Shown here piece by piece: positions 210 to 30,617 of a stretch of DNA of 30,617 nt. Origin of the DNA: a virus. Lineage: Duplodnaviria > Caudoviricetes. Under the pieces are notes generated by a model. The model worked only from the letters and a program-made list of their open reading frames with translations. It ran no database searches and had not been told where the DNA came from. Numbering within the stretch: the stretch's first letter is position 1; each line of letters begins with the position of its first letter. The stretch is from positions 1 to 30,617 of IMG/VR virus record IMGVR_UViG_3300012352_000441; one strand, given 5' to 3'. The translations under genes and the position numbers were made by a program.

Positions 210-238
210 TCTTTTGTAACCAATTAAATTCATATACA

Positions 239-1090
239 ATGAACACAACAACGCAGCCAGCAGTGGCGGAAAAGGACATCACCACACAGGTGCTCCAAAA
301 AGTGCAAGCCTTTGAGAAATCAGGCGAGCTAAGAATCCCCAAAGACTACTCACCTGAGAACGCGCTCAAAGGCGCAATGCTAGTCTTAACCGAGTTAAAA
401 ACAAAGGACGGCAGCAACGCTTTGCAGTATTGTTCGAAGACAAGCGTTGCACAGGCGCTTTTGAAAATGGTTGTTGAGGGTTTGAGCGTGCTTAAAAAGC
501 AAGGTTACTTTATTCCTTACGATAAAGAGCTCACTTGGATTCGCAGCTATCAGGGCTCAATCGCTTTGGCTAAGCGAGTAGCTGAGGTCAAAGAGGTGAA
601 CGCGGTTGTTGTTTATCAAAACGATTTGTTCGAGTACGGCATCGACGTGAAAACGGGACGCCAAGTTATCTACAAACACGATCAGAAACTCGGCAACATT
701 GCTAACGATAAAATCATTGCGGCTTATGCAATTGTGATTTACAAAGATGGCACGACCGATGCGACTATCATGAGTATGGACGAAATTCGGGCAGCATGGA
801 ACCAAGGCGCGCCAAAGGGCAACTCGCCAGCGCATAAGAATTTCACGCAGGAGATGGCAAAAAAAACGGTCATTAACCGAGCTTGCAAGACACCTATCAA
901 TAGCTCTACCGATGTTATCCTGGTGGGCGGTTACGATGAGGAAAACGACGAGGCGCCAACTATTGACATTAAGCACGAAATCATAGAGGACACAGCGAGC
1001 CAACCGATTACCTTTGAAATCAGCGAAGCGCCCGAGCCTACTTTGAAAAAAGCGCGCCCTGTTGACGAACCTGCGGAATTCCCTGAATAA
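239..1090 (+). CDS. recT: RecT/Redbeta-family single-strand annealing recombinase
   Basis: Motifs GL...KKQGYFIPY...SYQG, VVYQND.FEY, AYAIV, and EMAKKTVINRACK, plus an acidic C-terminal tail, as in phage RecT. Confidence 0.9.
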   Translation: MNTTTQPAVAEKDITTQVLQKVQAFEKSGELRIPKDYSPENALKGAMLVLTELKTKDGSNALQYCSKTSVAQALLKMVVEGLSVLKKQGYFIPYDKELTWIRSYQGSIALAKRVAEVKEVNAVVVYQNDLFEYGIDVKTGRQVIYKHDQKLGNIANDKIIAAYAIVIYKDGTTDATIMSMDEIRAAWNQGAPKGNSPAHKNFTQEMAKKTVINRACKTPINSSTDVILVGGYDEENDEAPTIDIKHEIIEDTASQPITFEISEAPEPTLKKARPVDEPAEFPE

Positions 1091-3035: not shown

Positions 3036-3053
3036 CCTAAAAACAACAACAAA

Positions 3054-15443: not shown

Positions 15444-16412
15444 ATGGCTTCTTTAAAATCCATCATTAAATCCAAGTTTGACTACGATGTGTCAGACCTA
15501 ACGGCTTACGTTGACGACCAACAAGCTGAATTAGTTACACGCTCAGTATCTGAGGCGGTAACATTGAACTACATCCGCACCCAAGAGGGCGTTAAAGGTT
15601 CGCAAGACATCAAATTGCTCAATGATGAAGTAATTTACCAAGCGGCTGACTGCGATATGACTGACCAAGGTGATACGGTCTTTTCTGATCGCAAAATCAC
15701 AACCGTTGCAATCGGTTTCAAAAAAGGCTTTTGTAACAAAGACCTCGACGGATTCTGGACGCAATTAGCACTCCGTCCGGGTGCAATGGCTGAGGATAAA
15801 GAACTCCCTTTTGAGGCTGCAATCACTGACTATTTGATGCGCTTAAATGCGGTTCAATTGGATAAATTGATTTGGCAAGGTAACACCTCAACAGGTACAG
15901 GCAACCTTCAGTGGTTCAATGGCTTCAAAACCATCTTAACCGTTGCAAATGGTTGTGTTGATTTAAACCCTTCTGACATCACGTCAATTACCAACTCTAA
16001 CGCTTACGACATTTTTTACGGATGTTACTCTAACATGAGCGATGCTATCATGGAAAGCGACGAGAAAATTGCTTTCACTTCACGTGGCAACTTTGACAAG
16101 TTGATGAAGAATCTCGTTGACCTCAACTTCTTCCATTACTCACCTGCGGCTATCGCTGCAATGAATGAAGTAATCATTCCGGGTACTGATTTGACGGTTG
16201 TTAAAACACCAGGTCTTGCTGGCACAACTGAAATCTTTGTTGGTAAGCGTTCACACTTCGTATTCGGTACTGACTTGGCTACTGATTCGGCTTCTTATGA
16301 ATTGTGGTACTCGCAAGATGACGACAAGCTCTACATCCGCTCTAAAATGCGCGGTGGTGTACAGGTTCCGTTTACAAACGAAATCGGCGTCTTCAAATTA
16401 CACACAGCCTAA
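15444..16412 (+). CDS. Major capsid protein
   Basis: 322 aa after the scaffold. FC.KDL...W, LPFEA.I, LIWQG.T and FGTDL..D patterns; followed by a terminator. Confidence 0.85.
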   Translation: MASLKSIIKSKFDYDVSDLTAYVDDQQAELVTRSVSEAVTLNYIRTQEGVKGSQDIKLLNDEVIYQAADCDMTDQGDTVFSDRKITTVAIGFKKGFCNKDLDGFWTQLALRPGAMAEDKELPFEAAITDYLMRLNAVQLDKLIWQGNTSTGTGNLQWFNGFKTILTVANGCVDLNPSDITSITNSNAYDIFYGCYSNMSDAIMESDEKIAFTSRGNFDKLMKNLVDLNFFHYSPAAIAAMNEVIIPGTDLTVVKTPGLAGTTEIFVGKRSHFVFGTDLATDSASYELWYSQDDDKLYIRSKMRGGVQVPFTNEIGVFKLHTA

Positions 16413-22975: not shown

Positions 22976-23499
22976 AGCCCGTTAGAGCTGCTCTTTATTG
23001 GTTCATTATTTACGCAGCATTCGTTATGCTGTGGAGCTTCTTAATGTACGGATGCTCAGCAACTCGCTTGCATGACAAAGCCGTGCAAAAAGGCTACATT
23101 CATACTATCCATGTGGACACTTTCAAGGTTAACACCATTGATACCATGTGGAAAGATGGCAAACCCTACCCCATAATCAAATACAAAGACTCTTTAGTTG
23201 TAAGGACTGAGTACGTATATATCCCTAAATGGCGCTATCGGTTCGATAACAAGCGTTTTGCTGATAGTTTGGCGCAAATACATGCAATTCATGAGGCTCA
23301 ACTAAGAAACGCGCTTAAAACAAAGAAAATCGAAGCGAAACAAACCAAGCAAAAAGAGAAGCAAAAGACCAAAAGAACCCAAAGCGAGAATAAAAACGGC
23401 TTTGCTGATGGCATGAAATGGCTTGCAATCTTTGCAATCCTGCTTTTTGTTTGGTGGGTAAGCTGGAGAATACACAAATACATAGCGATTAATGGTTAG
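22972..23499 (+). CDS. Unimolecular spanin-like lipoprotein
   Basis: Hydrophobic signal peptide ending in a lipobox-like LMYG-C, plus a C-terminal TM segment WLAIFAILLFVWWVSW; between holin and endolysin. Confidence 0.6.
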   Translation: MKPVRAALYWFIIYAAFVMLWSFLMYGCSATRLHDKAVQKGYIHTIHVDTFKVNTIDTMWKDGKPYPIIKYKDSLVVRTEYVYIPKWRYRFDNKRFADSLAQIHAIHEAQLRNALKTKKIEAKQTKQKEKQKTKRTQSENKNGFADGMKWLAIFAILLFVWWVSWRIHKYIAING

Positions 23500-24070
23500 A
23501 AACTACACAACAGCGCAGCTTTTAGAGAAAGTGCGCGAAATCGAAGGATTTAAAGGCTATCCGCAAGAATATTGGCTTTTAGGGGTCCGCTCAAATGAGG
23601 ACATTGCCAACCGATTTGATGACAAATTCTATTTGTTTTTAGGCGAGCAGTTCGTTTTGGTCACATCAGGAACAACCAACCCGGGCACGCCTGTACTCGC
23701 AAACTATGAAAAATTCAACAAAGCAGGCGCCGCCGTGCTCAATGCCGACAAGTGGTATTATAATATTTGGCACTATGGAAAGCACCAAGGCAAAGTCGAA
23801 GCATTACTCCAGCTCGGCGCTGAGGTCGAAGTCTACCGAGATGCCGACAAAGACGATAACAGCGAAGAAATCGGAACCCTTCAAAAAGGTTATTTCGGGA
23901 TCAATTTTCACCCCAACACATACAACCTAAACAAAGCGAGTGGCACAGCTATCAATGGATGGAGTGGCGGCTGCCAAGTGGTAAACGACGTAAACACATA
24001 CAAGCGCATTATAACGATGTGTAAGCCACAAAAGAAAGTGAGCTATTGTTTAATCAATGAATTTGAGTAA
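23492..24070 (+). CDS. Endolysin, L,D-transpeptidase (YkuD)-like catalytic motif
   Basis: LGVRS......N.FDD, GTTNPG, and GINFH-x14-WSGGCQV (His...S.GC). Confidence 0.7.
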   Translation: MVRNYTTAQLLEKVREIEGFKGYPQEYWLLGVRSNEDIANRFDDKFYLFLGEQFVLVTSGTTNPGTPVLANYEKFNKAGAAVLNADKWYYNIWHYGKHQGKVEALLQLGAEVEVYRDADKDDNSEEIGTLQKGYFGINFHPNTYNLNKASGTAINGWSGGCQVVNDVNTYKRIITMCKPQKKVSYCLINEFE

Positions 24071-24089
24071 ATTTAACCTGTTGTTGTAT

Positions 24090-24130
24090 ATGAGCGCGCA
24101 TGGTAGGTGAAAGCATCAGGCGCGCTTCAT
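24090..24130 (+). ncRNA. GC-rich hairpin with GAAA loop after the endolysin gene
   Basis: ATGAGCGCGC...GCGCGCTTCAT outer stem with an inner TGGT/ATCA stem and GAAA loop. Confidence 0.5.
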
Positions 24131-24153
24131 TGCATAGCGTTGGTTTTAGCAGG

Positions 24154-24187
24154 AAAGGCACCCAAACGAGGGTGCCTTTTTTTGTTT
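24154..24187 (+). terminator. Intrinsic terminator
   Basis: AAAGGCACCC-aaacga-GGGTGCCTTT followed by a T-tract. Confidence 0.85.
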
Positions 24188-24226
24188 ATATTTGCTTTAC
24201 GATATTGTGTCATAAATTCCTACGTT

Positions 24227-24259
24227 AAGCGGGCAGCTCTAAATGCCCGCTTTTTGTTT
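24227..24259 (+). terminator. Second intrinsic terminator
   Basis: AAGCGGGCA-gctctaaa-TGCCCGCTT followed by TTTGTTT. Confidence 0.8.
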
Positions 24260-24318
24260 GCCTACAAGTCAAATAAACGACACCACAAAAAAATATTTTC
24301 ACTTTTTTTAAATAAATA

Positions 24319-24349
24319 TTTGCAACTATAAATATTTATAGTACATTTG
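24319..24349 (+). promoter_or_regulatory. Early promoter (TTTG -33, 19-nt spacer, TACATTTG -7) with an 18-bp palindrome in the spacer
   Basis: Canonical Bacteroidota promoter geometry; ACTATAAATATTTATAGT (24325-24342) is a perfect palindrome. Confidence 0.75.
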
Positions 24350-24401
24350 TGGGGTCAAAGAGACACAACAACGCTAAAAACAACCACTTAACAACAACAA
24401 A

Positions 24402-24569
24402 ATGCAAAAAATCAAAATCATTTTTTTAGACATCAACGGAGATGAGCTATACACAAAAACCAACGAGTTTTTCGATGTGCAAGACGCTGCAAAATACGCT
24501 AACGAAATAGTCGCTAACGGACGCAGCAACGAAAATTCTTTCGAAATTGTAGTGTTAGCCAATCAATAA
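24402..24569 (+). CDS. First early gene, hypothetical (55 aa; not in ORF track)
   Basis: ACAACAACAAA leader. MQKIKIIFLDINGDELYTKTNEFFDVQDAAKYANEIVANGRSNENSFEIVVLANQ. Confidence 0.7.
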   Translation: MQKIKIIFLDINGDELYTKTNEFFDVQDAAKYANEIVANGRSNENSFEIVVLANQ

Positions 24570-27936: not shown

Positions 27937-27954
27937 ACTATAAATAATTATACC
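27937..27954. promoter_or_regulatory. Operator-like site (15/18 match to the 24325 palindrome) between TATATTTG (27917) and TATATTTA (27955)
   Basis: ACTATAAATAATTATACC. Confidence 0.5.
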
Positions 27955-27987
27955 TATATTTACACCCATAACCAATATACAACAACA

Positions 27988-29938: not shown

Positions 29939-30027
29939 AATGAGGATAGCGCGGAGGTAATTAGCCGCGCGAAAAGCGAAGCGTTTACGCCTTCCTCATT
30001 TCTTTTTAAACGCTCAATTTAAACGCT
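29939..30027 (+). ncRNA. Three-way-junction leader with loop complementary to duplicated downstream sites
   Basis: AATGAGGA/TCCTCATT outer stem with inner GCGCGG/CCGCGC and GCG/CGC stems. Loop AGCGTTTA (29980-29987) is complementary to TAAACGCT at 30007-30014 and 30020-30027. Confidence 0.6.
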
Positions 30028-30032
30028 ATAAA

Positions 30033-30509
30033 ATGCAAAAAGAAGTCTGGAGGGATATTCCCAATTTTCAAGGAGCTTACCAAGTAAGTGATTTAGGCAA
30101 TGTTAAAAGCTTAAAATTTGGCAAGGAAAGAATTTTGAAGCCATCAGTACACAAAGATGGATACTTGTTTGTTACGCTTCACGGAAACAATTTAAGGAAG
30201 GTAAAATTAATTCACCATTTAGTAGCCGAGTCATTTTTAAATCATGTGCCAAATGGATTTAAAATGGTTATAGACCACATCAATGATATTCCAAATGACA
30301 ACCGATTAAGCAATTTGCAAATCGTAACACATAGATACAACATTTGCAAAACGCAAGGAAAGTATGCAAGTAGGTTTAAGGGCGTTTATAGGTCTGGCAA
30401 AAAGTGGAAATCTCAAATTGTGGTAAATAACGAGGTACTTTACTTGGGTACTTTCACCTGTGAAATAACAGCGCACTTGGCGTATAGTCAAAAATTAGCT
30501 ACTCTTTAG
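30033..30509 (+). CDS. NUMOD4-HNH-AP2 homing endonuclease
   Basis: EVWRDIP...G.YQVS.LG.VKS (NUMOD4), H.LVA..F, IDHIN..PNDNRL.NLQ.VT...N (HNH), and S.FKGV....KW..QI......YLG.F..E..A..AY (AP2-like). Confidence 0.9.
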   Translation: MQKEVWRDIPNFQGAYQVSDLGNVKSLKFGKERILKPSVHKDGYLFVTLHGNNLRKVKLIHHLVAESFLNHVPNGFKMVIDHINDIPNDNRLSNLQIVTHRYNICKTQGKYASRFKGVYRSGKKWKSQIVVNNEVLYLGTFTCEITAHLAYSQKLATL

Positions 30510-30549: not shown

Positions 30550-30617
30550 AGTCAGGTGGCGGAATTGGTAGACGCTACAAGCACCGTAGTGGAGAGCCTA
30601 CAAGGTAATTGAAGTGG
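30550..30617 (+). tRNA. tRNA-like RNA, 5' part (continues at 56-85)
   Basis: AGTCAGG-TG-GCGGAATTGGTAGACGC is a Leu-type acceptor strand plus D-arm. Confidence 0.75.
30563..30617. repeat. 55-bp terminal overlap (right copy)
   Basis: Identical to 1-55. Confidence 0.95.

Follow-up and report, generated by a model that had tools for sequence, protein, structure and literature searches.

Which function, if any, is encoded in the gap between the endolysin-like gene of a lake phage and its next early promoter, and, if the gap specifies RNA, which messages would that RNA act on? The window analysed here, 30,617 nucleotides from a virus of the Caudoviricetes (IMG/VR record IMGVR_UViG_3300012352_000441), makes up a phage record that is complete and bears direct terminal repeats. 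An earlier note on this DNA described three hairpin-capped units in the gap and proposed a cassette of small RNAs that block translation initiation, unit 1 on early phage genes and units 2 and 3 possibly on host or competing-phage mRNAs. On balance, and with moderate confidence, we favour a revised form of that proposal, in which the gap would hold two small-RNA genes and the first, RNA-1, would clamp the phage's early leaders with two arms and lower their translation. Blocking of early leaders is thus kept, and is better supported than before once units 1 and 2 are taken as two arms of one RNA, whereas a separate unit 2 and a unit 3 mirroring start regions are given up. A literature search that covered few subscription journals returned neither a phage RNA directed against clpP or a host protease mRNA nor a tested small RNA from any phage of the Bacteroidota; in a 2025 review of phage small RNAs, the names Bacteroides and Flavobacterium have 0 occurrences.

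Genome setting and predicted host

All assignable protein genes lie on the + strand, in the order recT, metallo-hydrolase, terminase, portal, tail, holin, spanin and endolysin-like gene, followed by small early genes, a DnaD-like gene, an SbcC-like ATPase and an HNH gene. A scan of 41 proteins detected no integrase, repressor or antirepressor family; several early genes could not be given a family, and a cryptic antirepressor may be among them. The host is probably a member of the Bacteroidota, as indicated by TAnnTTTG boxes and by leaders that are A-rich and lack Shine-Dalgarno sequences. The searches turned up neither a cultured relative nor a prophage. The gap sequence gave a single 33-nt chance match in blastn, the predicted capsid gene at 15444 had no match in the cultured-relative search and was not found in 401 Flavobacteriales genomes, and the endolysin search reached only ~30-35% identity among the matches listed (15 of 24 records). 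The positions of the features discussed below are collected in Table 1.

Table 1. Features of the gap and of the predicted target regions (window coordinates)
Feature	Position	Strand	Remarks
recT start region	230..252	+	secondary predicted target; first protein gene behind P3 (30521-30539)
Endolysin-like gene	23492..24070	+	PHROG 33083 endolysin, E 7.9e-10; last late gene
RNA-1 -7-type box TAnnTTYA	24068..24075	+	last base non-consensus; overlaps endolysin stop
RNA-1	24080..24182	+	predicted 103-nt small RNA; units 1 and 2 of the earlier note
Arm 1 (5' seed)	24080..24091	+	complementary to 27975-27986; partly to the recT, 24402, 24577 and 3054 starts
Central stem	24089..24130	+	invariant apex 24102-24117; sequence differs between two clades, fold kept
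Arm 2 (predicted single-stranded toehold)	24140..24149	+	complementary to leader just 5' of arm 1's site
RNA-1 intrinsic terminator	24151..24182	+	would also stop late read-through
RNA-2 -7 box, consensus TAnnTTTG	24187..24194	+	
RNA-2	24199..24256	+	unit 3; predicted ~58 nt: open 5' segment, terminator 24227-24252
19-nt stretch in RNA-2	24204..24222	+	complementary to L-G-I-Y-D-T-M coding motif of Flavobacteriales clpP
Promoter P1 and leader of gene 24402	24326..24401	+	CTATAAATA motif; -7 box 24342-24349; top predicted target by energy
Promoter P2 and SbcC-like ATPase leader	27938..27987	+	box 27955-27962; leader ~21 nt

A predicted two-armed RNA behind the endolysin-like gene

The division into three units had to be redrawn. 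Two terminator-like hairpins are present, as is the promoter box assigned to unit 3 (Table 1), but the first of the three hairpins lacks a U-tract and a single fold takes in both unit 1 and unit 2, which leaves two predicted RNA genes. The locus of RNA-1 starts with a promoter-like box; arm 1 and arm 2 follow, separated by a long stem whose apex is invariant, and a terminator closes it. The segment 24071-24195 folds into one long hairpin followed by the terminator (z -4.3; 0/200 shuffles as good). In 12/12 loci examined, the box occupies -12..-5 relative to the first G that is invariant. This is the position reported for the promoter box in Flavobacterium (PMC9723704), and the predicted start is therefore G24080, which places base 24079 outside RNA-1; 24079, the thirteenth matched base of the earlier note, varies among versions.

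RNA-1 was found in 12 relatives (9 IMG/VR records and 3 metagenome contigs) that form two clades, after 11/20 viral and 8/11 metagenome pattern matches had been discarded as unrelated; nhmmer over loci L001-L197 detected no distant homologues. Among nine aligned versions, 12 of 13 columns are invariant both in 24080-24092, which covers arm 1 and where the sole change (A to G) keeps G.U pairing, and in 24140-24152, which covers arm 2. The apex is nearly fixed, and the stem and linker diverge between the clades. The stem fold was recovered in all nine versions folded, with arm 2 unpaired in eight of the nine predicted folds and, in both clades, a CAT at 24128 paired in cis with an ATG at 24090 at the base of the stem. 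The terminator shows two compensated pairs plus G.U variants. Since the two clades do not align in the central stem, RNAalifold mis-paired it on the plain alignment, and stem conservation was taken from the separate folds. No tRNA was found in the gap. Contigs from three sequencing runs of the same study comprised only short, unrelated pieces, which speak neither for nor against expression. RNA-1 is very probably a real non-coding RNA.

SRP mimicry was considered, as the apex suggests the loop of SRP RNA helix 8, and rejected: the RF00169 model gave 0 matches at E<=10 in G000 and G005, and both bacterial genomes searched with it matched.

Clade B (G005-G008) has its early genes and RNA-1 in common with the window, and most of its head and tail genes are unmatched in blastp against the window's late proteins. 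By gene content, clade B is a mosaic in which RNA-1 appears to travel with the early module.

Both arms match the leader of the SbcC-like ATPase

The 13-nt complementarity between 24079-24091 and 27975-27987, which the earlier note listed for unit 1, is present and is weak when taken alone (p about 0.02-0.04). A match of this length to any of 40 start windows arose in 102/5000 dinucleotide shuffles of the gap (p about 0.02) and, under leader shuffling, in 37/1000; a match anywhere on the + strand arose in 155/1000 gap shuffles. As arm 1 was selected for its match, arm 2 alone is an independent test. Unit 2, previously read as a separate and possibly host-directed RNA with no perfect match in this genome, contains arm 2 of RNA-1, and its 3' part pairs right beside the site of unit 1: in the SbcC-like leader, the complements of arm 2 and then of arm 1 adjoin over 17 contiguous nt (27970-27986). 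The same two-arm complement extends over 19 nt in 9/10 other loci with a readable leader, with one G.U pair in clade B. The position of the P2 box implies a leader of ~21 nt, nearly all of which would be covered by the two arms.

When start regions were scored for both arms, the SbcC leader came first in 7/7 SbcC-holding records (40-44, runner-up 34-39), a count that left out G005. The score of G003 is 42, and is lower in the shuffle-control scoring because the ORF caller chose another ATG. A two-arm score of 40 was reached by 0/300 arm shuffles that preserve composition, and 21 other phage records attained only 23-35. Among 751 candidate starts from other phage records, spurious ORFs included, AAAACCAA occurs in 4, AACCAA in 20 and ACAACAAC in 0. 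Arm 2 is also complementary to CTAAAA(A)CCAA-type words in early leaders. When the full-length window RNA and those of four relatives were co-folded with the leader, the prediction was a three-way junction that leaves the hairpin intact (-10.6 to -15.2 kcal/mol); for the start-trimmed window RNA-1, the minimum-energy model keeps arm 1 alone on the SbcC site. At locus L283 the DNA upstream of the SbcC site has been replaced, and both arms are still predicted to pair.

Early promoters and ranking of predicted targets

A CTATAAATA motif is common to three early-type promoters, at 24326 (P1), 27938 (P2) and 30521 (P3). The first protein genes behind them, 24402, the SbcC-like ATPase and recT, rank 1, 2 and 4 of 42 start regions as predicted targets of RNA-1. 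Arm shuffles performed as well in 0/196 cases for the rank sum, 2/196 for the summed energy and 4/196 for the SbcC energy. The best energy of RNA-1 to any start region (-12 to -14 kcal/mol) is ordinary, being equalled in 59/196 shuffles, which counts against the pairing. Enrichment of early over late genes is weak (Mann-Whitney p 0.13; at one threshold 33/192 vs 7/82, p 0.04), with imperfect gene classes in both comparisons. The complementarity to recT that had been pointed out is there and in fact extends over 10 nt (24084-24093 to 230-239), and the leader words noted at genes 3054, 24402 and 24577 were located as ACAACAAC at 3043, 24391 and 24569. Promoter-first leaders, being free of coding constraint, may favour A/C words.

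Under the favoured reading, a host sigma factor would transcribe RNA-1 from G24080, using its own weak promoter, and late read-through would add to the supply. The free arm 2 would seed on the A-rich leader, after which arm 1, freed from its weak cis pairing, would extend the duplex until it ends 2 nt short of the AUG. For initiation, ribosomes of the Bacteroidota disregard Shine-Dalgarno sequences and rely on upstream adenines (PMC6847099), and it is these adenines that the duplex would hide. The build-up of RNA-1 would act as a timer on the promoter-first genes 24402, SbcC-like ATPase and RecT, and the output of the first early cistrons, including the recombination-module ATPase and RecT, would fall.

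Alternative readings of RNA-1

RNA-1 could be a mere structured 3' end of the late transcript, that is, a protein-binding or stabilising hairpin with a terminator that insulates the early promoter, the leader match being a by-product of U/G-rich sequence meeting A/C-rich sequence. Its place at the end of the late operon fits this view, as does a promoter-like box that doubles as a stop codon in 11/12 loci; an invariant apex is what a protein site would be expected to show, the best binding energy is not unusual, and both arms and leaders are of low complexity. The lack of covariation with targets points the same way. No compensatory arm-target change was seen among the relatives, which are not independent tests because the SbcC site is nearly invariant, and when covariation was sought through distant SbcC relatives, 77 of 78 loci were examined and no convincing antisense partner emerged beyond the close family. 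A by-product of composition is hard to reconcile with the 0/300 arm shuffles that reach the two-arm score, with arms that are conserved while their cis partners vary, or with a box that is kept in the one locus where it is not a stop codon. We regard the 3'-end explanation as rather unlikely.

The pairing may also be real and the promoter not, with RNA-1 cut from, or part of, the late mRNA and early genes shut off only late in infection. RNA-1 and the late genes are collinear, no strong terminator precedes the one at its end, and its box is non-consensus. The endolysin-like gene is interchangeable among relatives, so that other genes lie upstream of RNA-1, and the exact spacing of the box from the first invariant base in all 12 loci, behind these differing genes, makes this quite improbable. 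That the gap holds small peptides or a DNA-level site instead of RNA genes is highly improbable, since the open frames that cross it (42 aa on the + strand, 28 aa on the - strand) are not kept among the 7 versions checked and the terminator varies through G.U and compensatory pairs.

An exchangeable second predicted RNA and its possible targets

RNA-1, as the favoured two-armed antisense RNA, is followed by a second predicted gene. Among the 12 relatives, RNA-2 is the same in one (G005, from the other clade), is replaced by an unrelated segment in two (G001 and G009) and is absent in nine, a pattern that marks an exchangeable module. As a sequence module, RNA-2 is real, optional and separate from RNA-1.

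The complements of units 2 and 3 had been read as typical Bacteroidota start regions. Scored with a start-region matrix derived from 412 phage starts, they are equalled by 17% and 22%, respectively, of 2224 random ATG contexts, and the resemblance is thus not distinctive. For unit 3, without a perfect match in the genome according to the earlier note, no start-codon target was found in the window (p 0.48). An exact 18-mer scan of GTDB gave 22 matches, none of them at a Bacteroidota gene start. The only clean gene start, that of a Y1 transposase from an unclassified bacterium, was discarded as a candidate.

When 401 Flavobacteriales genomes were scanned with 15-mers, 13 matches were obtained (one of which is the centre genome, selected for its match) against 1 for the reversed control. 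Six of the 13 fall in one coding motif of clpP, with a run of 17 nt in 6 and 19 nt in 2; an ATG within this match is out of frame. The predicted duplex with RNA-2 is 20 bp with G.U in all six (-19 to -27 kcal/mol). When one mismatch was allowed in 301 phylum-wide genomes, 2/2 matches were again in clpP. In 29/30 clpP loci, which had been selected for family membership and not for a match, best scores averaged 33.8, and shuffles gave 26.2 +/- 0.9 (0/4406), although the locus was chosen after the fact and a rough core-genome scaling gives p 0.002-0.07; relative to the 19-mer, 1-6 mismatches are present in these genes. The alternative segment of G001 and G009 matched 12/301 genomes, scattered, with none in clpP and two in one protein, which we take to be UvrB.

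RNA-2 might instead block a start codon of the host or of a rival phage, the clpP match being coincidental, and this we consider possible, if somewhat doubtful. The layout of RNA-2 is FopS-like, and one true gene start, that of an oxidoreductase at L304, has a 15-nt match. Some similar phage cassettes, moreover, have matches at start codons within the genome that carries them. Cassettes of promoter, segment and terminator occur commonly in the loci examined (41 distinct segments, including some that are due to chance or come from phages outside the Bacteroidota), and 4/26 of those tested show such matches at p<0.05, three of them from one family. A complement that is not start-like, the absence of Bacteroidota starts from the 22 GTDB matches and the recurrence of clpP in 6/13 and 2/2 matches all weigh against a start-codon target, and the view that unit 3 mirrors a Bacteroidota start is replaced by one in which the Flavobacteriales recurrence is a clpP coding motif. 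We read RNA-2 as a swappable passenger that has no phage target and is more probably directed at a host mRNA; clpP is the best current candidate for that mRNA, to be taken as a lead only.

A wider speculation, which we hold to be unlikely, is that the interval from lysis to early genes serves as a cargo slot for small RNAs, combining a fixed two-armed timer RNA with an exchangeable mini-RNA; here, a ~20-bp duplex on clpP would cut the supply of Clp and protect phage proteins or antitoxins.

Several related arrangements were seen in other phages. Cassettes of ~40 nt with promoter, CAT, segment and terminator that match start codons of their own genome occur at L008:4366-4420 and in G013, G017, G019, G020, G024 and G026, the one in G017 matching three starts. 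In two short-cassette variants CAT is replaced by CGT, and pairing with AUG would persist through a G.U pair. In a more distant relative (G030, L111:6349-6630), this slot ahead of the early promoter is occupied by two different promoter-segment-terminator cassettes. In G005-G008 and G010 (e.g. L210:15726-15790), a conserved promoter, a 21-nt segment and a terminator lie directly ahead of a 178-aa gene, and the segment with its terminator is possibly an attenuator.

Comparison with known small RNAs

GibS of Bacteroides thetaiotaomicron is described as a trans-acting RNA whose seeds R1 and R2 pair around target start codons (PMC7366714, PMC11697453). RNA-1 is similar in having two predicted seed regions and predicted start-region targets in a phylum without Shine-Dalgarno recognition. 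According to the same sources, GibS is chromosomal and largely unstructured and has metabolic targets, whereas RNA-1 is phage-borne, its arms flank a long stem with an invariant apex, and its predicted targets are phage early leaders. RNAs of the FopS family are reported to have a canonical promoter, a single-stranded 5' seed and an intrinsic terminator, to target the first genes of polycistrons, and in one reported copy to reside in a phage (PMC11697453). RNA-2 has the same layout, and the predicted targets of RNA-1 are likewise first genes; unlike the FopS RNAs described, RNA-2 is a single copy with a swappable segment, and its best match lies inside a coding region and not at a start. The combination of a sigma-A-type promoter, a single-stranded 5' part and a terminator, a trait of FopS and GibS, is predicted for RNA-2, whereas the box of RNA-1 departs from the consensus and its 5' arm is paired in part. 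Pairing of a seed with the start regions of first genes is predicted for RNA-1, without covariation, and was not found for RNA-2.

The c4 antisense RNA of phages P1 and P7 lies on the same strand as its target, pairs near the ribosome-binding site and blocks translation of a phage gene, thereby controlling antirepressor and heteroimmunity, as summarised in one source (PMC12197685); it corresponds to Rfam RF01695 (PMC2864571). RNA-1 is likewise encoded upstream of, and on the same strand as, its complementary target sites. It differs from c4 in that no antirepressor family was found among the 41 proteins scanned and in that its arms pair side by side on one leader. For RNA-2, if directed at a host, the lambda RNA PreS offers a precedent of a phage small RNA acting on a host mRNA, being described as Hfq-dependent and targeting the essential dnaN mRNA of E. 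coli (PMC12197685). RNA-2 differs from this account of PreS in that it would form a ~20-bp duplex inside clpP. No FopS, GibS or c4 match at gathering score was found in the window, and the 15 weak Rfam matches in 23900-24450 are sub-threshold and terminator-driven, with none of the three among them. RNA-1 and RNA-2 would work like GibS, FopS and c4, and belong to none of these families.

A compact two-arm RNA that covers nearly the whole of a 21-nt leader is tractable in Flavobacterium johnsoniae, and RNA-1 could become a reprogrammable knock-down scaffold for Bacteroidota. If RNA-2 targets clpP, it would represent an RNA-only phage route to weaker host proteolysis.

Other elements near the early promoters

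The copy of CTATAAATA at P1 (24325-24342) forms an 18-bp palindrome and is a possible operator, and motifs akin to it precede SbcC in more distant phages. Just behind P3, a tRNA-like element spans the terminal repeat, from 30550-30617 into 56-90; its D and T arms are intact and its anticodon/variable region is enlarged. ARAGORN reported nothing on the linear window and, at a relaxed threshold, a tRNA-Ser with an insertion across the join. Between this element and recT, positions 90-215 form a hairpin-rich non-coding stretch, which G005 and G006 lack; in both, recT follows a P3-like promoter directly. An Rfam int-alpA match (29939-30035, 41.4 bits) lies ahead of the NUMOD4-HNH gene, and TAAACGC, the complement of a GCGTTTA inside it, occurs twice immediately before the start codon, a layout that, on these matches, is cis-antisense-like.
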